From NCBI GenBank assembly GCA_029856435.1, contig JAHQXB010000157.1, positions 1 to 27,758 of the forward strand: a stretch of DNA of 27,758 nt, in the 5' to 3' direction. Under the pieces are notes generated by a model. It saw only the letters and a list, made by a program, of their open reading frames with translations, made no database searches and was not told where the DNA came from. The translations under genes were made by a program, and so were the position numbers. Source of the stretch: Candidatus Jordarchaeia archaeon (GTDB taxonomy: Archaea > Asgardarchaeota > Jordiarchaeia > Jordiarchaeales > Jordiarchaeaceae). This document shows, piece by piece, positions 16,080-27,250 of this stretch (position 1 is its first letter; each line of letters starts with the position of its first letter).

Positions 16080-18461
16080 TCAAAACGCGAGAAGGTTTTT
16101 AGCCTTTTCAAGGCCCGCTATTTTTTCAGCCATACCTCTAATTTTCTCAATCAGCTCGCCCGCATCATGGCAATCTCCGAAAAAGGCTTGCAACCTCTCC
16201 TTTTCGATACCGAACTGCTCCAGAAGTTTTTGCAACATAGAAACCCTCAGGTTGGCGACATCAGCTCCCCTCAAATAGTGGCATCGATCACAACCTATGA
16301 GCATCACCCCATCTGCCCCGCTGTTAAATGCATCTAAGACGACTTGGGGGTCAACAGAAGCTGTGCAGGGAACGTCGACGATACTCACATTTACCGGGTA
16401 CTGCATACCAAGCATACCCGCATCATCTATAGTTGAATAACCGCACTCCAGACAGGCTATAGCAACAATTTTCTTGGCTTCTCCGCCATTTCCCAGAACC
16501 CCATCAATAGCAGCTGTCAACTGTTTACTAGTATGACGCCTTAAAGTGATGCAGCCTGAGGGACAAGCAGCCGCGCATATACCGCAGCCGAAGCACTTTG
16601 CTTGGTCAACTTGGGCTGCTTCATCTCCCACGTGAGCCGCGTCGAAGGGACAAGCCCATTCACATATCCTGCAGGAACTGCAAATCTCTTCATTAACAAA
16701 GGACGTTAGGAGAGGCTTCTCAATCTCCTTCTGGTTCAGCAGCTTCACCGCACCTATAGCCGCACCAGCAGCATATGACACAGCGTTAGGTATATCCATC
16801 GGTGTCATTGCGCCTCCAGCTAGTAATACTCCCACAACGTTTGTTTCTGAGGGACGCACTTTTGGGTCTACCGCGCTGAAGAATCCATCTGGCCCTAAGG
16901 CGACTCCTAGCATCCTAGCGAGTTCTTGGGTTCCTTTTGAGGGAACCATTGCCATGCTTAGCACAACAAGGTCGGCCTCTATCTTCTCAAATTCGCCGGT
17001 GAAGCTGTTTTCGCCCTCCACCACCAGTCGTTTACCATTAGAGATTACTTCGCTGGGTCTTCCTCTTATGAAGGTTACTCCGAGTTCTCTTGCTCTGCGG
17101 TAGTATTCCTCGTATCTTGAGCCTACTGGACGTATGTCCATGTATTCGATGACTACGTCTATCTCTGGGAAGTGTTCTTTTATCATGATGGCGTGTTTTA
17201 GGGCTACCATGCAGCATATGTTTGAGCAATAGTAATTGTGTTTCTCATCTCTGGAGCCTACGCACTGTATCATAACTATTCGGTTGACTGGTTTTTTATC
17301 AGATAAACGGATTGGCCTACCTCCAGTTGGTCCAGTGACATCTAGTAAACGGGCTAATTCTATCTGGGTAATCACGTCGGGATATCGCCCATAATTGTAT
17401 TCCTTTACTAGGGCGGGGTTGTATTCTTCGAACCCGGTGGCGATTATTATGGCGCCCGCATCAAGAGTGAAGGTCTCCTCCTTCTCCTTTAGATTAATGG
17501 CGTTTGTGGGGCAAACCTTAACACATTTTTCGCACTCTTGGAATTTGCAGTTTTTAGGGTCAATGGCGTAGACTTGCGGTATGGCTTGAACAAAGGGCAT
17601 ATAGATTGCTTTCCTTTTGGTAAGTCCCAGGTTGAAGCCGTCTGGCACCTCAACGGGGCAAACCTTAACGCACTCGTTGCATCTGATGCATTTTTCCTCG
17701 CTCACGTATCGGGGATTCTTTTTAACTACGACTTTAAAGTTGCCTATGCTGCCTAGAACGTCCACCACTTCACAGTTGGTGTAAAACTTTATTTTGGGGT
17801 TAAACTCGAGGTTAGCGCGATATATGCATCGGCGTGGAGAGCCGTCGCCCAATCCGGGACAGCCCGTTGTTCTTACGCAGAGGGAGCAGTCCTGTGTGGG
17901 GAACACCGTTCCTAGTTCTAGGCATAGTCCTCCCACTGTGGGCTGCTTTTCAATGACGTCGACTTGAATTCCCAGTTCTGCAAGTTCTTGGGCGGCTGTT
18001 AATCCCGCTATTCCCCCTCCAATCACCACAACCTTTTGGGTGATGGGTATTTTTTCGTAGGGGATTTCTTCTAGGGCTTCGGCTCTGTTGGCTGCTGAGA
18101 GTATTAGGCCTTTTGCCTTTTCTGTTACATGCTCTTTGGGTTCATCCATGTGTACCCAGGAGCATTGTTCGCGAATGTTTGAGATTACTAGATCGTAATA
18201 GTTCATTCCAGCGTCTTGGAGAAGGCGTCCCCAAGTGGACTCATAGAGTTTGGGTGTGCAGGCTGCAACCACTACTTTGTCGACTTTTTTTGCTTTAAGC
18301 TGTTTCAGCATTTTTTCCAAGTCTGTTTTACAAAGAACGCTGCTTCTCACTATAAAAGAAAATTTTCCAGTTTTTTCCAAATCTGAGGTCAGCGAGTCGA
18401 AGTCTATGTTTTTGGTTAGGGTTTTTCCGCAGTCGCATATAAATAAGCCAATTTTAGGCAA
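16080..18461 (-). CDS. hdrA: Heterodisulfide reductase subunit A fused to a C-terminal MvhD/FlpD-like [2Fe-2S] domain
   Basis: N-terminal LFICDCG, FAD motif VIGGGIAG, ferredoxin motifs CIRCNECVKVCP and CSSCRICEWACP/CFGCGICAAACP, QCVGSRD...YCSNICC; C-terminal ACLECGY...VPCTASVD...GADGVMLIGC..CHY (MvhD-like). Confidence 0.93.
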   Translation of the reverse strand: MPKIGLFICDCGKTLTKNIDFDSLTSDLEKTGKFSFIVRSSVLCKTDLEKMLKQLKAKKVDKVVVAACTPKLYESTWGRLLQDAGMNYYDLVISNIREQCSWVHMDEPKEHVTEKAKGLILSAANRAEALEEIPYEKIPITQKVVVIGGGIAGLTAAQELAELGIQVDVIEKQPTVGGLCLELGTVFPTQDCSLCVRTTGCPGLGDGSPRRCIYRANLEFNPKIKFYTNCEVVDVLGSIGNFKVVVKKNPRYVSEEKCIRCNECVKVCPVEVPDGFNLGLTKRKAIYMPFVQAIPQVYAIDPKNCKFQECEKCVKVCPTNAINLKEKEETFTLDAGAIIIATGFEEYNPALVKEYNYGRYPDVITQIELARLLDVTGPTGGRPIRLSDKKPVNRIVMIQCVGSRDEKHNYYCSNICCMVALKHAIMIKEHFPEIDVVIEYMDIRPVGSRYEEYYRRARELGVTFIRGRPSEVISNGKRLVVEGENSFTGEFEKIEADLVVLSMAMVPSKGTQELARMLGVALGPDGFFSAVDPKVRPSETNVVGVLLAGGAMTPMDIPNAVSYAAGAAIGAVKLLNQKEIEKPLLTSFVNEEICSSCRICEWACPFDAAHVGDEAAQVDQAKCFGCGICAAACPSGCITLRRHTSKQLTAAIDGVLGNGGEAKKIVAIACLECGYSTIDDAGMLGMQYPVNVSIVDVPCTASVDPQVVLDAFNSGADGVMLIGCDRCHYLRGADVANLRVSMLQKLLEQFGIEKERLQAFFGDCHDAGELIEKIRGMAEKIAGLEKAKNLLAF

Positions 18462-18472
18462 GGTAATCTCCT

Positions 18473-19360
18473 CTACAATTTTTCTATTTTTTCAAGAACC
18501 GCGTCAGGCTTTATTCTTTGGAACTTAAAGTTCAGTTCGTCAGCTGAGACACCTTGAGCCAGGGCTAATAATTGAGGGTAGTAGAAGACGGGTATGTTAT
18601 AGTCCGTACCCAGCGCCTTATTGATTTGGAATTGTCCAATGTCGTATTGAATCAGACAGAAGGGACAAATTACACAGAGAAGATCAGCGCCCGATATCCT
18701 GACATATCTGAGTTTTTCTTCTATCATCCTATTCGTGGTAGCTTCGTCCACGGATCGAACGCCCACCCCACAGCATAGGAACTTTTTCTCGTAATCAACA
18801 GGCGTAGCACCAGTAGCCTTTACTATTCCCTCAAAGCAGGTGGGATTAAACGGATCGTCCACCTGAACCACTTCACTTGGCCTGAGAACATGGCAACCAT
18901 AGTGAACAGCCACCTTTATCCCACTCAGAGGCTTCTTAACCGTAGATTCTATCTTTTTAGGTCCCACATCCTCGTACAACACTTGGAGGAGATGTCTAAC
19001 CTCAACACTGCCCCTATACTCTTTGCCCACCTTGGCTAGGGCCTCATTAACCTTATTCTTATACCCTCCATCGTGCTTGAGCACATAGTTTGCGGTTTTC
19101 AGAGATTCAAAACACCCACTGCAAAGCGTTAAAATGTCCAATCCCTGTTCCTCAGCTACAGCCAAGTTTCTGGAGGCTAAAACAATCCAAGTGAATCTGT
19201 CCAATGCAGAGAAACCCACAGGATCAGGACAGCAAGCAAATCCGGGCAAATCCTTAGCATTCACATCCAAACTCTTCAGCGTTAGTCTAGTTGCCACCTC
19301 AAGGTGGGGCAAACGGTTCGGTATGGTGCAACCAAGAAACAAAGCGTATTCTCGGCTCAT
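18473..19360 (-). CDS. hdrB: Heterodisulfide reductase subunit B
   Basis: Two CCG domains: FLGC, CCPDP, LCSGC, HYGCH, CCGVG, CPFC. Confidence 0.95.
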   Translation of the reverse strand: MSREYALFLGCTIPNRLPHLEVATRLTLKSLDVNAKDLPGFACCPDPVGFSALDRFTWIVLASRNLAVAEEQGLDILTLCSGCFESLKTANYVLKHDGGYKNKVNEALAKVGKEYRGSVEVRHLLQVLYEDVGPKKIESTVKKPLSGIKVAVHYGCHVLRPSEVVQVDDPFNPTCFEGIVKATGATPVDYEKKFLCCGVGVRSVDEATTNRMIEEKLRYVRISGADLLCVICPFCLIQYDIGQFQINKALGTDYNIPVFYYPQLLALAQGVSADELNFKFQRIKPDAVLEKIEKL

Positions 19361-19917
19361 TCTTCTACTGCCTCCTTCTTTTGTATTTCTCCTTCCATAG
19401 GTTTCTTACCCGCCACCAGTTTATCAAAACCAGTAAAGCTCGTTAATGCTCGTATCTCTTCGGGAGGCGCATTCTCAATCACAGGCAAACCCAGCTTTTC
19501 CCTGCGGGACAGTATAGCTTTGCTACTAGGGCTCACCATGCCAAACTCCAAAAGCGCCTTCGCTTCTTCCTGCAAGTGTATGGGGAACAAGCCCTTTTTG
19601 CTTGAAAGGTTTTTAAGCTCAATGATGATCTCTGAAACCTTAACCCCTTGAGGACACTTCTCTGTGCAGGTATGGCACACGGTGCAGAACCAGATGGTGG
19701 GGCTATCTACTGTGCGATCCTTCCTACCCAGTAAAGTGTTTTCAATGATTCTCCGAGGGTTGAACTTAGGATTGTATCTGAATACTGGGCAACAGCCGGA
19801 GCAAGTCGAGCACTGGTAGCAGAAATTTAGTGATTCCCCCTCGTGGGTTGCGGTAATTTCGCTGCGGAAGCTACTATTCATTTCCGATGATGCCTCAACC
19901 AAGTTTGAATCCTCCAA
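19357..19917 (-). CDS. hdrC: Heterodisulfide reductase subunit C
   Basis: CYQCSTCSGCCP and CTVCHTCTEKCPQGV; ATGA overlap with hdrB. Confidence 0.95.
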   Translation of the reverse strand: MEDSNLVEASSEMNSSFRSEITATHEGESLNFCYQCSTCSGCCPVFRYNPKFNPRRIIENTLLGRKDRTVDSPTIWFCTVCHTCTEKCPQGVKVSEIIIELKNLSSKKGLFPIHLQEEAKALLEFGMVSPSSKAILSRREKLGLPVIENAPPEEIRALTSFTGFDKLVAGKKPMEGEIQKKEAVEE

Positions 19918-22618: not shown

Positions 22619-22909
22619 TTAGAGGCTTAACATTATTTCTCTTATTCTTCCCTCTATTAGTCTCACGTTATATTTTTTGAATGTCTCTCCCAAGGTTTCT
22701 ATGATTTCTCTGGCGTTCTTTTTGGATTCTAGCACTATCTGGTGAAGTATCATCATTTGGTCAATTTTGCCGAAGAAGCTTAGGCAAACTTTTTGTTTAT
22801 TTGTGGACTCATCTTTCCCAGGATCGATTTCGATGTAGACTTCATCTTCTACTCGTCTTTCGAGGAGGTATAGGAAATCTTCCAGTTTTTCGACCCTTAG
22901 AAATATCAT
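22619..22909 (-). CDS. Hypothetical protein (96 aa, alpha/beta)
   Basis: ATG start, globular amphipathic composition, same strand as its neighbours, no competing ORF. Confidence 0.7.
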   Translation of the reverse strand: MIFLRVEKLEDFLYLLERRVEDEVYIEIDPGKDESTNKQKVCLSFFGKIDQMMILHQIVLESKKNAREIIETLGETFKKYNVRLIEGRIREIMLSL

Positions 22910-22969: not shown

Positions 22970-23116
22970 CTACTCTTCCTCCAATGCTTCATAGAAGAGA
23001 AGCTTGCAGTCTACACACTCATTTACATTCACTCTTTTGCCCCTAGTTTTACCAATTGCTACCGTGACTTGCCCTAGGTTTATGGATTTCCCCTTACATC
23101 TGGGACACTCACTCAT
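22970..23116 (-). CDS. Small zinc-ribbon protein (48 aa)
   Basis: MSECPRC...ECVDC (two CxxC pairs). GGAGGAG lies upstream of the ATG at 23116, so the ORF-track start at 23197 is probably too long. Confidence 0.8.
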   Translation of the reverse strand: MSECPRCKGKSINLGQVTVAIGKTRGKRVNVNECVDCKLLFYEALEEE

Positions 23117-23424
23117 AGTTTCTCCTCCACAAATAATCAAATTAGAATATGCGTCTGGTTCATTATATTTGTTTTCTATAATTTTCACTAAAAACATTAA
23201 TTTTTCACGTTTTTACAGAGGAGATTTTGTGAACCATCGGTCCTAGACCAAGCTTTCACCTGCCCTTCTGAAAAAATCATTGTTTTCATTCTATAAATAG
23301 GCCATATGGTAATAACCATAATCTCGTGAACGGAGTTAGGTGGAAACAAATCTGGAATTAATTGTTTCAATTTTGGTGTTTGCCAATTTGTGATTTAAAA
23401 AGGGGAATAGTTATGGCGAACGGT

Positions 23425-24150
23425 TTATTCTGTCTTTGTAGGTTTTACTTCTATTCCCTTCTCGGTTACTTTAAAGTCTCCCATCGTTGCCGCTTTGCCG
23501 CTTTGCCTCACATGTAGCGTATTACCTTTAATTTCGATTATAACGTCTGCTAGCTGCAATATCTGCATCATTACATTCTTCTCGGTTAATTCGGACTCCA
23601 GAAGGGTGACGAATAGTCCCTTGACTAGTCGCATCCGAGCCTTGAGGAAGGAGAGAAATCGGATAGCAGCGGCATCAGTGGTAAAGGTGATAATGCTTGA
23701 TAGGGAGTCTAAGACCATTCTTAGCCTTCTAAAATTCTCAGTTAAACTGATTATTGCCTCAACTATTTTTGAGCTTAGTCCCGCTAAGTCAGTTGCAGCG
23801 GGAACATACATAACTGTTTTTGTGTCTTCCACATTGGGATTTACTGTTTGGGTGTAAGTATCAATTATTTTGTATGCAACTTTTTCCTCCTCACCGTAGG
23901 AAGTTAGGAACCAGCCAAAATCTTCCATTTCACTGGATACATCTTCAGCAAAATTATTCGTGGTAATATAAATTCCCGCCTCTCCCTTTTCGAGACCCCG
24001 ATAAAAGAACTCCTTAGCTAGAACTTCTTTTCCACAGAGTGGCTCACCCATAACTATGCACAGAGAACCCGGACGCAAACCATTATTTAGCAATTCATCT
24101 AGGCCCTGTATCCCTGTAGGTATTCTCTTTTCCTTTTCCCACTCCGGCAA
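23425..24150 (-). CDS. KaiC/RAD55-like RecA-fold protein with a degenerate Walker A (probably inactive)
   Basis: RIPTGIQGLDELLNNGL, P-loop GEPLCGKE, Walker B MVLDSLS, LADVIIEI, C-terminal FKVTEKGIEV. Confidence 0.88.
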   Translation of the reverse strand: MPEWEKEKRIPTGIQGLDELLNNGLRPGSLCIVMGEPLCGKEVLAKEFFYRGLEKGEAGIYITTNNFAEDVSSEMEDFGWFLTSYGEEEKVAYKIIDTYTQTVNPNVEDTKTVMYVPAATDLAGLSSKIVEAIISLTENFRRLRMVLDSLSSIITFTTDAAAIRFLSFLKARMRLVKGLFVTLLESELTEKNVMMQILQLADVIIEIKGNTLHVRQSGKAATMGDFKVTEKGIEVKPTKTE

Positions 24151-24287
24151 GTAACGTCACTCCTTCCGACAAGCCCTTCCATTTATTTTTGAGTCCCGTA
24201 ACAAGATAATAATGGCGCTATCAACTAGAAATTTAATCTGGTGGTATGAGTTAGTAAACTTGAGTTTTGTAAAATAAATTTTAGTAA

Positions 24288-24650
24288 TTATTTAAATATT
24301 TTCATAATATCCTTTCGGTGAGCTTCTATTTCTTTGAGTAGGCTTTCGATATCAGCCCTGTCATTAAGTAATACTACAAGAATCGTTTTGGGACCTGCAC
24401 CTAAAGCTAACAGTTTCCCCCTTTCCACTTCTATTATTGCTCTCTTCATAAAGGATTTTAGCAGTGCTGCCACAGTTTCAGAAGCGCCAACAAGGGATGC
24501 AGTCATAGCCGCAAATTTTTGCCCATCGACGTCCTGTGGGAGGCTACTAGTCATCAGTGTCCCATTTCGGGTTATTACAGCAGCGCCCTCCACATCCGCA
24601 ATGTTTTGCAAGCTGGACAAAATTCTATTTACCTCTTCCGTATCACCCAT
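24288..24650 (-). CDS. Roadblock/LC7 (MglB-like) domain protein
   Basis: VEGAAVITRNGTLMTSSLP...FAAMTASLVGASE...AIIEVERGKLLALGAG. The ATG at 24650 follows GGAGG and overlaps the stop of the GTPase gene; the ORF-track start at 24698 is probably too long. Confidence 0.92.
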   Translation of the reverse strand: MGDTEEVNRILSSLQNIADVEGAAVITRNGTLMTSSLPQDVDGQKFAAMTASLVGASETVAALLKSFMKRAIIEVERGKLLALGAGPKTILVVLLNDRADIESLLKEIEAHRKDIMKIFK

Positions 24651-25815
24651 TCTCAATTCTAATTCCTCCAAACAGGATGATGTCGAGGAGAACATCAATC
24701 ACCAGAGTTAAGTTATTTTTGGTCTTCGCACTGCAACCTATTACGGGTATCTTTGAAGGAAGGGACAACTTTTCCTGGACGCTAGGTGGAGGTAAGGCTT
24801 CTTTGAGATCCTGTTTGTTTGCCGCTATTACGGAGGGTAAGTTGTAGCCCCCGCACTTCTCAAAAAGAATTTTGGCTCTCTCGAAAGTTTTCACGTCACT
24901 GCTATCCACTATTAGAATTAATCCCATAGCTTCCCTAGCTATCGTTTCCACCAAGGGATCAAACTGTGGCTGGCCAGGAGTTCCAAAGAATTCTATATAG
25001 AACCCTCGATAATCCAATTTTCCATAGTCGAGAGCTACCGTGGTTCCCATACGATCTACGCTTATCGCTTCATCAGCTACTGCATGGAGAAAGGTTGTCT
25101 TTCCTGCGTGGTAGGCCCCGGTCACTACAATTTTTGGTATATATACCCTTAATCCCCCAGGAATTAGTATCCTTACTGGAATTTCAAAACCTGCATTATT
25201 AGTCCATGTCACCTTTTTTATGTAGAGAGATTCCCTAACGTAGAAGAGCTTTTTACTGGGTTTAATTTCGAAAACACCTTCAAAAAATTCGTTGATTTTG
25301 CCAACATACTCTGGCTGATAAGTCCATAGGGAAAAGAGCCCAATAACAATAGCTTCACGAAGATAACCAATCAGATTCAGAACCTCTTCTACCCCATTTC
25401 CATGCATGTCTATGAAGCTACTTATCGAGTCAAAGATCACAACGGTTTTTGCAGATGATAACTGGGACAGTTTTTCTCGGGTTTCATCAGTATCGTAGGG
25501 GTTTGTGACAAATTTTTCTTTACTGTCTATCCCACTGTATCCGCAGTAAGCATCCACCAAGATGAATGAACCTTCCTTCTCAAAATGCTCAGTTGCCCAA
25601 CCTAAGGCTTTGGCCTTTTTTCTCACAGCGTCGGGAAGTTTGTTGTTCACCACATACATTATTCGGTATCCATTGTCCAAACCTACTTTTGCGAAGTGCA
25701 GCCCTATGAGTGAGGGGTCTATTTCTGGCGCTACCATGAACACGACCTTTTTGTTTTCCGGAATTCCACCAATTTTTTTGTCAAAAAAGGGAATGTTTGT
25801 TTTTAACATGGGCAC
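24643..25815 (-). CDS. Fusion of an inactivated KaiC-like domain and an MglA/CvnD-type small GTPase
   Basis: N-terminal KTNIPFFDKKIGGIP with P-loop replaced by VAPEIDPS, plus VIFDSIS. C-terminal G1 GAYHAGKTT, G2 TTVALDYG, G3 GTPGQ, G4 NKQD, G5 CSAK. Confidence 0.9.
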   Translation of the reverse strand: MPMLKTNIPFFDKKIGGIPENKKVVFMVAPEIDPSLIGLHFAKVGLDNGYRIMYVVNNKLPDAVRKKAKALGWATEHFEKEGSFILVDAYCGYSGIDSKEKFVTNPYDTDETREKLSQLSSAKTVVIFDSISSFIDMHGNGVEEVLNLIGYLREAIVIGLFSLWTYQPEYVGKINEFFEGVFEIKPSKKLFYVRESLYIKKVTWTNNAGFEIPVRILIPGGLRVYIPKIVVTGAYHAGKTTFLHAVADEAISVDRMGTTVALDYGKLDYRGFYIEFFGTPGQPQFDPLVETIAREAMGLILIVDSSDVKTFERAKILFEKCGGYNLPSVIAANKQDLKEALPPPSVQEKLSLPSKIPVIGCSAKTKNNLTLVIDVLLDIILFGGIRIENG

Positions 25816-25823
25816 AGTGTCTC

Positions 25824-26618
25824 CTAGTAGATTACGCTAATGCCATCATTGGTTATTGAAAGCCTCCTCCTACCCATGTAATGAGCTGTGCCCCTCATCT
25901 TGAAAACTTCAATATACCTGTTCCTTTTATCACCTTCAGCTTCCCAATATAGTACTATAACTCCATTCGCTAAATATTCCTCCACCCCAAAACGAGTGAT
26001 GCTATTTGGATCATTTCCAGTCTCAGTTACAAATATGGAGGTACACTTATTCTTACGCAGCATACTAGAAATAATGTTTAACTCCCTGCGAATCACACCA
26101 GTATTAGGATACTGTAAGAACAAGACGGAGACGGAGTCAAGAACCACCCTCTTTATCCCCAACTCCCTCACAGCAGCTTCAAGCGTCACATACAAACCAT
26201 CAAGGTTGAAAGCTTCAGGATTCAAAGATAGAGCTCTATCACCCACAGTCATAAGTGTAAAATCTGCTATTAATAGCTTCTTCTGCCTAATAAGTTCAGA
26301 CAGATTCCATCCAAAGTTTTTACCATTACGTAGCAAACTCTGCATAGTTTCCTCAAAGGTTACATACAATCCCGGTTCATCAAATTGAGAAGCCCCTCTG
26401 TACAAAAACTCCAATGAGAAGATAGATTTCCCAGCACCAGAAATTCCAGTCACTATGTAAGTTTCGCCTCGCAATAGGCCCCCCTGAATCATCTCGTCGA
26501 ATCCCTTAATGCCTGTGGGCGTCCTTTCACTCAACTCTGATTCACCCTCAAAAATTTTTGTCCTTCTCCGAAGCTCCCCCAGAAGGGTGTCACGGCGGGG
26601 GCTGCCTCTATCACCCAT
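25824..26618 (-). CDS. kaiC: Single-domain KaiC-family ATPase with intact motifs (resembles the CI domain)
   Basis: TPTGIKGFDEMIQGGL, Walker A GISGAGKS, YVTFEE, Walker B VVLDSVS, FGVEEYLANGVIVL, KMRG; directly downstream of a kaiB homolog. Confidence 0.88.
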   Translation of the reverse strand: MGDRGSPRRDTLLGELRRRTKIFEGESELSERTPTGIKGFDEMIQGGLLRGETYIVTGISGAGKSIFSLEFLYRGASQFDEPGLYVTFEETMQSLLRNGKNFGWNLSELIRQKKLLIADFTLMTVGDRALSLNPEAFNLDGLYVTLEAAVRELGIKRVVLDSVSVLFLQYPNTGVIRRELNIISSMLRKNKCTSIFVTETGNDPNSITRFGVEEYLANGVIVLYWEAEGDKRNRYIEVFKMRGTAHYMGRRRLSITNDGISVIY

Positions 26619-26626
26619 GATTATTT

Positions 26627-26914
26627 TTACCTCCGCTTTTTTATGTCTTCTAAAATCTCTGTAAGCTCATCCACAGTTGGTACTCCAATAAATCTCCAAT
26701 TCAAACCTACAAGATCCAGGGTGGGCGTAGTTAGTACCCCATCTTTTAAGGCTCTCTCAGGATTTTTATCTAAATCTACCTCCTCAATCTCAAGATCTAA
26801 TTTCAGATTTTCCAAACTTTTCTTAATATTATTTAAAACCTGGTTATATTTAGGTGTTCTTTGAGACTTGTAGAGTACCAGTCTATACTCTCCCGCCGTC
26901 ACTTCTAACCACAA
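26627..26914 (-). CDS. kaiB: KaiB-like protein (thioredoxin fold without CxxC)
   Basis: LVLY..RTP, EEVDLDKNPERALKDGVLTTPTL and RFIG parallel KaiB motifs (LY..[24 protein letters not shown], RIIG); no cysteine in the protein. Confidence 0.85.
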   Translation of the reverse strand: MWLEVTAGEYRLVLYKSQRTPKYNQVLNNIKKSLENLKLDLEIEEVDLDKNPERALKDGVLTTPTLDLVGLNWRFIGVPTVDELTEILEDIKKRR

Positions 26915-26931
26915 CCTAAAACGGACCGCAT

Positions 26932-26950
26932 ATTTAATATAAAAATTATA
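26932..26950 (-). promoter_or_regulatory. Probable TATA box of the kaiB-kaiC operon (leaderless transcript)
   Basis: Minus strand TTTATATT at 26943-26936, centred about 26 nt upstream of the kaiB TTG; no SD sequence upstream of kaiB. Confidence 0.45.
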
Positions 26951-27026
26951 AATTACACTAATAAGGATTTAGGGGCCTAAATATAAAAAGAATAGAAAAC
27001 AAATAAAACTTTTTTAAACATTAAAG

Positions 27027-27250
27027 AAAATAAGTATACAAACCCGCAAATGCCCAATTATGGTGAGAAAAACAAATTTTAAATGAAAAAATAAGTATCC
27101 ATGTAAAAGAAATTTATAAAAATTTAAAAATAAGTATGTTTTGGCTTCTGAGTCCAAATAACAGATTATAAGACCCCAAACCTCGAAAAAGAGTCTATTT
27201 CACCCTTTTTTGCGAACTTTAACCGCCAAGTAAAAGAACCTAAAATAAGT
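27027..27250 (+). repeat. Direct repeats AAAATAAGT(AT), four copies, in an AT-rich intergenic region
   Basis: AAAATAAGTAT at 27027, 27088 and 27127; AAAATAAGT at 27242. Confidence 0.6.

Follow-up and report, generated by a model that had tools for sequence, protein, structure and literature searches.

An archaeal module joining an inactive KaiC, an MglA-type GTPase and Roadblock, and its lineage-specific variant in Jordarchaeales

Introduction

What is the role of a gene cluster in which relatives of the clock protein KaiC are encoded next to a small GTPase and its presumed regulator? The question is raised by positions 23425–26914 of a 27,758-nt stretch of DNA, here called the window, from a Candidatus Jordarchaeia archaeon (order Jordarchaeales). 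An initial annotation of the region described five genes, encoding a KaiB, an active KaiC, an inactive KaiC fused to a small GTPase, a Roadblock protein and a second inactive KaiC, and proposed that they wire a clock-type input to a eukaryote-like output. Among the candidate signalling families of archaea, none has expanded more than the KaiC-like ATPases. The eukaryotic small-GTPase/Roadblock-longin regulators, for their part, have their prokaryotic relatives in the MglA/Roadblock pairs. To our knowledge, almost nothing is known experimentally about either the KaiC-like ATPases or the MglA/Roadblock pairs of archaea.

The cluster is a genuine, conserved, lineage-specific variant of a widespread archaeal module, as yet untouched by experiment. 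At the core of this module are a fusion of a dead KaiC domain to a GTPase, a Roadblock gene and a stand-alone KaiC-like gene. In Jordarchaeales, this core has gained an active CI-like KaiC ATPase, here KaiC1, and a KaiB-like thioredoxin-fold partner. The window cluster displays the features by which the module is recognized, that is, a P-loop-less KaiC domain fused N-terminally to a GTPase with a GTPGQ motif, with Roadblock and KaiC-like genes adjacent. We are highly confident that it belongs to the module as described. How the module works is a separate matter, taken up after the evidence.

The five genes

All five open reading frames (ORFs) are on the minus strand, at the coordinates first described, and the distances between them are likewise as described: 8 bp, 8 bp, an 8-bp overlap and 137 bp. 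The motifs resembling Shine–Dalgarno sequences reported before kaiC, the fusion gene and the Roadblock gene are of the GGAGG type.

The first gene (26627–26914) encodes a KaiB-like, Cys-less thioredoxin-fold protein, identified with Pfam. It has 95 amino acids (aa) when read from TTG 26914; judged by the lengths of its homologues, translation probably starts at GTG 26902, giving 91 aa. KaiC1 (25824–26618; 264 aa; PF06745) is an intact, single-domain KaiC ATPase. The fusion gene (24643–25815; 390 aa) encodes the dead KaiC domain in residues 1–224 (25144–25815) and the MglA-type GTPase domain in residues 225–390 (24643–25143). For the fusion too, homologue lengths point to a later start, probably ATG 25809 for a protein of 388 aa, which makes the second gap 14 bp. 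The Roadblock/LC7 gene (24288–24650; 120 aa; PF03259), MglB-like, has a start that overlaps the fusion stop. The fifth gene (23425–24150; 241 aa; PF06745 and DUF7504) encodes KaiC3, a degenerate, stand-alone KaiC-like protein of the DUF7504 type. Pfam, NCBIfam and motif alignment bear out the gene identities and the division into active and inactive KaiCs.

A core module across archaea

The core recurs in Methanobacteriota, Halobacteriota, Bathyarchaeia, Thermoplasmatota and DPANN lineages. Outside Asgard, a word index returned 123 matches to the fusion, and 29 further full-length loci from about ten archaeal lineages were assembled. These are Methanobacteriota, Methanosarcinales/ANME-2, Methanocellales, Methanoperedens, Archaeoglobaceae and Bathyarchaeia, together with Altiarchaeota, Hadarchaeota, and Woese-, Parv-, Aenigm- and Nanohaloarchaea. 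One Methanomassiliicoccales locus comes in addition to the 29. A profile of the fused-type KaiC domain matched 113 representatives of 50%-identity clusters at an E value of 1e-30 or better, many of the top scorers being of fusion length. Databases list the fusion as 'ATPase domain-containing protein' or 'GTP-binding protein'.

The loci were annotated by mapping home-built hidden Markov models (HMMs) onto all ORFs. Of the 34 loci with both flanks, 33 have Roadblock immediately next to the fusion, the exception being L027; four loci cut by contig ends (L034, L044, L046 and L049) were left out of this count. A stand-alone KaiC-like gene is adjacent in 34 of 38 distinct loci; of the remaining four, three lack one flank. 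In three proteins of about 530 aa (P0111, P0112 and P0114), the dead KaiC, the GTPase and Roadblock are all fused in a single polypeptide, and one of these triple fusions is preceded by an overlapping DUF7504-type KaiC-like gene. The adjacency and the triple fusions substantiate the proposal that the Roadblock protein is the cognate partner of the GTPase.

The fusion is of single origin. In trees of 88–91 KaiC domains, the fused domains, including that of the window, form one clade with a Shimodaira–Hasegawa-like support of 98. The label 'fused' needs two changes on both trees, one of which is a split form in a Hadarchaeota metagenome-assembled genome (MAG).

Several loci depart from the simple layout. 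A Halobacteriota MAG (L030:1653-7538) has two fusion-plus-Roadblock copies, and the roughly 2 kb that separate them hold two additional Roadblock genes. The Methanomassiliicoccales locus (L013:4270-10716) and the related L047:2709-9060 have a second Roadblock gene and further KaiC-like proteins, the large ones of 590–815 aa carrying the altered P-loops GxPGTMKS and GxPGTFKT; L013 also encodes a second, stand-alone GTPase. The sensors that accompany the module in other lineages vary. An example is a Bathyarchaeia locus (L017:659-3765), where a 791-aa PAS-rich protein, a candidate sensor input, overlaps the start of the module's first KaiC-like gene.

Conservation in Jordarchaeales

The order was sampled through 11 species genomes from two families. 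Four close relatives have the five genes in the same order at 82–96% identity, and the sister family has them in the same order at about 46% identity. The fusion is present in all 11 genomes, one copy each. The KaiB-like gene is likewise a single-copy gene in 11 of 11, on the same contig, 1.1–1.5 kb upstream. The fifth gene is found, again in single copy, in 10 of the 11; the position of the fusion gene in the eleventh genome implies that the contig ends before it. Because the same genes occur in the same order across the 11 genomes at protein identities down to about 40–58%, the arrangement is beyond chance.

The fused-type domain did not turn up among about 190 other Asgard genomes sampled, where the only two matches, both weak, are stand-alone proteins of 243–248 aa. 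The synteny that the initial annotation asked for thus exists at two levels, with the five-gene form kept across the order and the core kept in other archaea. The tight linkage and the order-wide conservation argue for the functional unit proposed there, and functional linkage of the cluster genes is well supported.

The dead KaiC domains

The fused KaiC domain matches PF06745 over residues 5–224 (E 3e-16). VAPEIDPS replaces the P-loop, NNK (in VNNKL) replaces the catalytic Glu pair, and there is no Arg finger. The same losses are found in all 34 fused homologues aligned. Four fused domains have an upstream motif, GGIPxGKS, which the aligned motif table places apart from Walker A.

For the fusion, an AlphaFold2 (AF2) model based on an alignment of 24 sequences reaches a mean predicted local distance difference test (pLDDT) of 90 and a predicted template modelling (pTM) score of 0.85. 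In the model, one continuous strand, residues 221–233, runs from the KaiC fold into strand 1 of the GTPase. That is, the two domains are predicted to be joined by this single strand, with no linker. The modelled N-domain superposes on the hexameric RecA-superfamily ATPase PH0284 (2dr3; template modelling (TM) score 0.80, root-mean-square deviation (rmsd) 3.0 Å) and on KaiC as well. The idea that the GTPase takes the place of the CII domain of KaiC was considered and set aside. Foldseek aligns the fusion with two-domain KaiC only loosely (rmsd 11–12 Å over about 430 columns), and such a match is no evidence for replacement, as any two stacked P-loop domains could give it.

KaiC3 matches PF06745 (E 1e-26) and DUF7504 (E 3e-10). 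Its P-loop, GEPLCGKE, keeps the Gly and Lys and has Glu at the Ser/Thr position; TTNNF stands at the position of the Glu pair, and no Arg finger is present. The initial annotation had called its P-loop broken. As to hydrolysis this is correct, but it need not extend to nucleotide binding, as only the Ser/Thr is lost. KaiC3 may therefore bind nucleotide without hydrolysing it. The partner variant GxxxxGK[E/D/K/N] is found in Bathyarchaeia, Methanosarcinales, Methanocellales, Parvarchaeota and Nanohaloarchaea, and methanobacterial and ANME-2 module partners carry an intact GPPKTGKS. In the tree, KaiC3 groups among these module-type partners.

The fused-type profile also matches within, or at the C-terminal end of, five proteins of 700–1000 aa (P0281, P0288, P0302, P0332 and P0355). 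The dead KaiC domain has thus been combined with modules besides the GTPase.

The GTPase and its Roadblock partner

Asgard archaea are noted for eukaryote-like Rab, Arf and Rag GTPases, and the initial annotation read the locus as having a eukaryote-like GTPase/Roadblock output. The GTPase domain matches Arf and Ras over residues 228–378 (E 2e-13 and 2e-10) and small_GTP as well. Its G1–G5 motifs are complete: GAYHAGKT, MGTTVALD, GTPGQ, NKQD and SAK. Within the G3 segment, FFGTPGQ, the FGT-GQ core is invariant in 24 homologues, with the Pro varying in three; T258 and T259 of the G2 motif are invariant. The nearest solved relatives by sequence are Arl2, Arl8 and Arl3, as expected for the archaeal branch.

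MglA groups 2–5 are defined by a GTPGQ G3 motif and by a Thr that replaces the intrinsic Arg beside the G2 Thr, and they are coupled to MglB (PMC4316618). The archaeal Group 4 lacks the bacterial insertion between G1 and G2, and is reported to show no conserved neighbours (Wuichet and Sogaard-Andersen 2014, PMC4316618). The GTPase of the window has GTPGQ rather than DxxGQ, Thr in place of the Arg finger, and a Roadblock gene within four genes. At 390 aa, with a KaiC fold in the N-terminal 224 aa, the fusion departs from the single-domain format of MglA, about 160–250 aa. By its motifs, then, the GTPase is a prokaryotic MglA-type switch, not a eukaryote-like Rab, Arf or Rag. The eukaryote-like description has to be given up on this ground, and also because the core is spread across non-Asgard archaea.

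The Roadblock protein matches PF03259 (Robl_LC7) at E 1.4e-14, with 54 bits against a threshold of 23. Its matches in the PDB are the Roadblock/LC7 entries 9jue and 7yh1, CvnB5 (3leq) and MglB. The genome has 14 further small-GTPase matches and 18 PF06745 matches above the cut-off, a large stock of paralogues that may cross-talk.

KaiC1 and the KaiB-like protein

The slow ATPase of the CI domain of KaiC sets the pace of the circadian clock. KaiC1 is related to this domain. It matches PF06745 at E 6.5e-67, and against KaiC chains in the PDB it scores 176–184 bits with the CI half and 62–66 bits with the CII half. All motifs are intact: Walker A (GISGAGKS), the catalytic Glu pair (FEET), Walker B (LDSVS) and the Arg finger (KMRGT). 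Where CII has the phosphorylation sites S431 and T432, KaiC1 has Glu-Glu (GVEEY), as in CI. A clock KaiC is a tandem of CI and CII, about 500 aa; KaiC1, at 264 aa, has a single PF06745 domain and covers positions 11–239 out of 515 in the PRK09302 model, with a score of 229.8 bits (cut-off 408). The protein ends straight after this domain, so the A-loop is missing. In the tree, KaiC1 falls in the canonical-KaiC clade, apart from the module-type paralogues. Also in this clade are the active KaiCs encoded beside the module at two loci from Bathyarchaeia (L017 and L028). No orthologue of KaiC1 was found outside Jordarchaeales, where other single-domain KaiCs are at most 41% identical.

The KaiB-like protein is at the edge of its family. 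In Pfam, it scores 26.9 bits with KaiB (PF07689; cut-off 27.0) and 26.3 bits with Thioredoxin_3 (cut-off 24.8); the NCBIfam KaiB equivalogs give 19.6–19.9 bits against cut-offs of 110–145. Its top sequence match in the PDB, at E 5e-6, comes from the Rhodobacter KaiBC complex (KaiB, 8fwj_M); archaeal thioredoxins rank next, with matches to its C-terminal half. As in KaiB, a thioredoxin-related fold goes together with a lack of redox cysteines: the window's protein has no Cys, CxxC occurs in none of the 11 family members, and the family has RTPKY at the CxxC position of thioredoxins. The AF2 model (pLDDT 76) has the topology β-α-β-α-β-β-α, and its top fold matches are thioredoxins (TM about 0.7). 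The same topology is that of fold-switched, KaiC-binding KaiB. The protein is best named KaiB-like, not KaiB.

The genome carries no second gene of this kind, and a word-based search returned no homologues outside Jordarchaeales. The gene adjoins that of KaiC1 in all 11 genomes of the order, and from this linkage we infer that its product might bind the KaiC CI ring in a manner dependent on nucleotide state. In many archaea, KaiC genes of arCOG01174 are reported to occur together with KaiB-like genes of the thioredoxin family (Makarova et al. 2016, PMC4858521).

Proposed mechanism and alternatives

We propose the following. The dead KaiC domains would oligomerise, given that KaiC-fold proteins form rings, and the resulting scaffold would hold several GTPase domains. 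A Roadblock dimer would set the GTP/GDP state of the GTPase, serving it as GTPase-activating protein (GAP), guanine nucleotide exchange factor (GEF) or both, as MglB does on MglA. An active KaiC1 ring would couple ATP binding and hydrolysis to the scaffold, and the KaiB-like protein would bind one nucleotide state of KaiC1. The outcome would be a switch dependent on both ATP and GTP and working without a kinase. The mechanism is offered tentatively, and could well prove different. Taken together with the firmer assignment of the cluster as the Jordarchaeales version of a pan-archaeal module, it makes a reading that we consider reasonably probable.

The motifs limit the forms that the rings could take. 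Lacking the KMRG Arg finger, the dead domains cannot be expected to complete the ATP site of a neighbouring subunit. As the Arg finger is present in KaiC1 alone, ATP hydrolysis should need KaiC1–KaiC1 interfaces. This argues against a strictly alternating form of the mixed rings proposed in the initial annotation, and favours either KaiC1 homo-rings docked to a pseudo-KaiC assembly or rings containing runs of KaiC1.

A number of points weigh against this reading. KaiC1 belongs to a clade other than that of the module-type paralogues. Orthologues of the KaiB-like protein and KaiC1 were found in Jordarchaeales alone, and the two genes may be a separate upstream unit. The KaiB assignment stands at the Pfam threshold and far under the equivalog cut-offs of NCBIfam. 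The 137-bp gap before the fifth gene may hold an internal terminator or promoter. No conserved effector or sensor gene was found beside the cluster, its neighbours being syntenic in close kin only. The protein–protein contacts are all ones that we infer, and KaiB binding and GTPase gating are the most conjectural steps.

The first two of these points would be explained if the cluster were two independent units lying side by side, a KaiB-like/KaiC1 pair and a fusion–Roadblock–KaiC3 set, kept together by inherited synteny with no coupling. HMM mapping did not place a KaiB-like gene at any module locus outside Jordarchaeales, and the arCOG01174 association (PMC4858521) indicates that such a pair can stand alone. 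We regard this as unlikely. The gene order has been kept in all 11 genomes of two families while protein identity fell to 40–58%, the gap between kaiC1 and the fusion is 8–14 bp in the window's family, the KaiB-like gene has no second copy in the genome, and in Bathyarchaeia, too, the module has an active KaiC from the KaiC1 clade as a neighbour. Somewhat less doubtful, though still improbable, is a purely structural role, in which the dead KaiC oligomerises or localises the GTPase, nucleotide is not sensed, and KaiC3 is an adaptor with no role for ATP. The loss of the whole P-loop from the fused domain in 34 of 34 homologues fits this proposal, as does the want of a catalytic Glu pair and an Arg finger in both dead domains. 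It accounts poorly for the partners: the P-loop Gly and Lys of the KaiC3 type are kept across phyla, which suggests retained nucleotide binding, the methanobacterial and ANME-2 partners have the intact motif, and the Jordarchaeales and Bathyarchaeia modules carry a fully active KaiC.

At the other extreme is a true timer or hourglass, in which slow ATP hydrolysis by KaiC1 and delayed KaiB binding would periodically gate GTPase–Roadblock signalling. KaiC1 is closer to the CI domain than to any other protein of known structure, its KaiB-like partner is translationally linked to it, and bacterial MglA/MglB systems can oscillate (PMC6785124). We nevertheless judge a timer very unlikely. KaiC1 has no CII domain, no Ser/Thr phosphosites and no A-loop; KaiA had no match among the five genes in Pfam and NCBIfam, the rest of the genome not having been searched for it; and the KaiB-like protein is modelled in the thioredoxin fold only, with no sign of a slow fold switch, although AF2 cannot exclude one. 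In most lineages, moreover, the core works without KaiB or a CI-like KaiC. The cluster is not a circadian oscillator of the KaiABC kind, and the timer or clock-type input of the initial annotation is not upheld. A more ambitious form of the proposed mechanism would have all five proteins in one assembly, with a KaiB-read, CI-like KaiC ring stacked on, or docked to, a GTPase-bearing dead-KaiC ring as a switch set by the ATP/ADP ratio or as an hourglass. This too we think quite unlikely. If true, a G-protein switch would be set directly, with neither a kinase nor transcription, and the assembly would be an archaeal signal transducer of a new class, in which the lineage of the clock ATPase meets that of the Ras superfamily and Roadblock.

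Flanking sequences and neighbouring genes

The A/T-rich region upstream of the cluster (26915–27150, minus strand) is a candidate promoter. It has several boxes of the TTTATA/TTTAAA type within about 120 nt of the kaiB-like start. The 137 bp that separate Roadblock from the fifth gene (24151–24287, minus strand) contain TTTATTTT at 24278–24271, an A/T-rich stretch, and GGAGTG 8 nt before TTG 24150; they are a possible site of a weak terminator and an internal promoter. In the sister family (locus L020), the spacer before the fifth gene is 22 bp. A T5 run at 23397–23401 (minus strand), CCCCTTTTT, lies 24–28 nt past the stop of the fifth gene and is a candidate archaeal terminator.

The genes downstream were considered as part of the unit and rejected, being syntenic in close relatives only and missing from the sister-family locus. 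They are a Zn-ribbon-like ORF of 75 aa with two CxxC pairs (22970–23197, minus strand) and a 96-aa ORF with no family match (22619–22909, minus strand), both conserved in close relatives only. The third downstream gene considered, for a membrane hexapeptide transferase, has the same restricted synteny. Farther along the window, at 16080–19917 on the minus strand, is a heterodisulfide-reductase-like set with no relation to the Kai/GTPase cluster. It encodes an HdrA-like flavoprotein (793 aa, with a fused MvhD/FlpD domain), a CCG-domain protein (HdrB-like) and a 4Fe-4S protein.

Significance

The module joins the KaiC and GTPase lineages in one polypeptide, over a range that runs from DPANN archaea through methanogens to a single Asgard order. 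It offers a compact set of soluble proteins with which control of a G protein by an ATPase-derived scaffold can be tested. The Jordarchaeales form, with its active CI-like ATPase and KaiB-like partner, adds a handle on KaiB-type state readout. With it, one can ask whether such readout is older than circadian clocks, or exists outside them. The locus does not bear on eukaryogenesis in the way at first hoped for, since its GTPase belongs to the prokaryotic MglA type and the module extends beyond Asgard.

Comparison with known systems

The closest characterised system is the MglA/MglB switch, and the closest concept is the proposal that KaiC proteins are signalling hubs (Makarova, Galperin and Koonin 2017, mBio 8:e01959-17). 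In the literature searched, no experimental study of the module was found, nor was a paper linking KaiC to MglA, MglB or Roadblock; Makarova et al. 2017 was not covered. A RadA-type role in DNA repair was considered and rejected, as Pfam and NCBIfam did not show the defining parts.

The cyanobacterial KaiABC and Rhodobacter KaiBC clocks share with the cluster a KaiC closest to the CI half, with Walker A, Walker B, the Glu pair and the Arg finger kept, and a small KaiB-like protein encoded just upstream. Unlike the clock KaiCs, KaiC1 has one domain, no phosphosites and no C-terminal A-loop, and the five genes have no KaiA match; the KaiB-like protein narrowly misses the threshold of its family, and its model shows a plain thioredoxin fold.

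The actinobacterial conservon (CvnA–D; Mfp of Mycobacterium) likewise combines an MglA group 2-type GTPGQ GTPase with Roadblock in a multi-gene signalling operon, and its CvnB5 is among the top PDB matches of the window's Roadblock protein. The cluster differs in being archaeal and in having KaiC-fold proteins in place of a CvnA-type histidine kinase and CvnC (DUF742). Neither of the latter had a match in the five genes or in the eight ORFs searched on the downstream side, and with these defining parts missing from the Pfam and NCBIfam results, identity with a conservon was rejected.

We know of no link between this module and polarity or motility, unlike MglA/MglB. Like MglA groups 2–5, the GTPase has the GTPGQ G3 motif, the Thr for Arg, no bacterial G1–G2 insertion, and an adjacent Roadblock gene; unlike them, it is the C-terminal half of a dead-KaiC fusion. 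Unlike Group 4, for which no conserved neighbours were reported (PMC4316618), it has KaiC-like genes as constant neighbours. The cluster also shares features with the signalling-hub proposal. As relayed in PMC5847659 and PMC4858521, these are a KaiC family that has expanded and includes inactivated members (iKaiC), fusions with signalling domains, and linkage of some KaiC genes to KaiB-like genes of the thioredoxin family.

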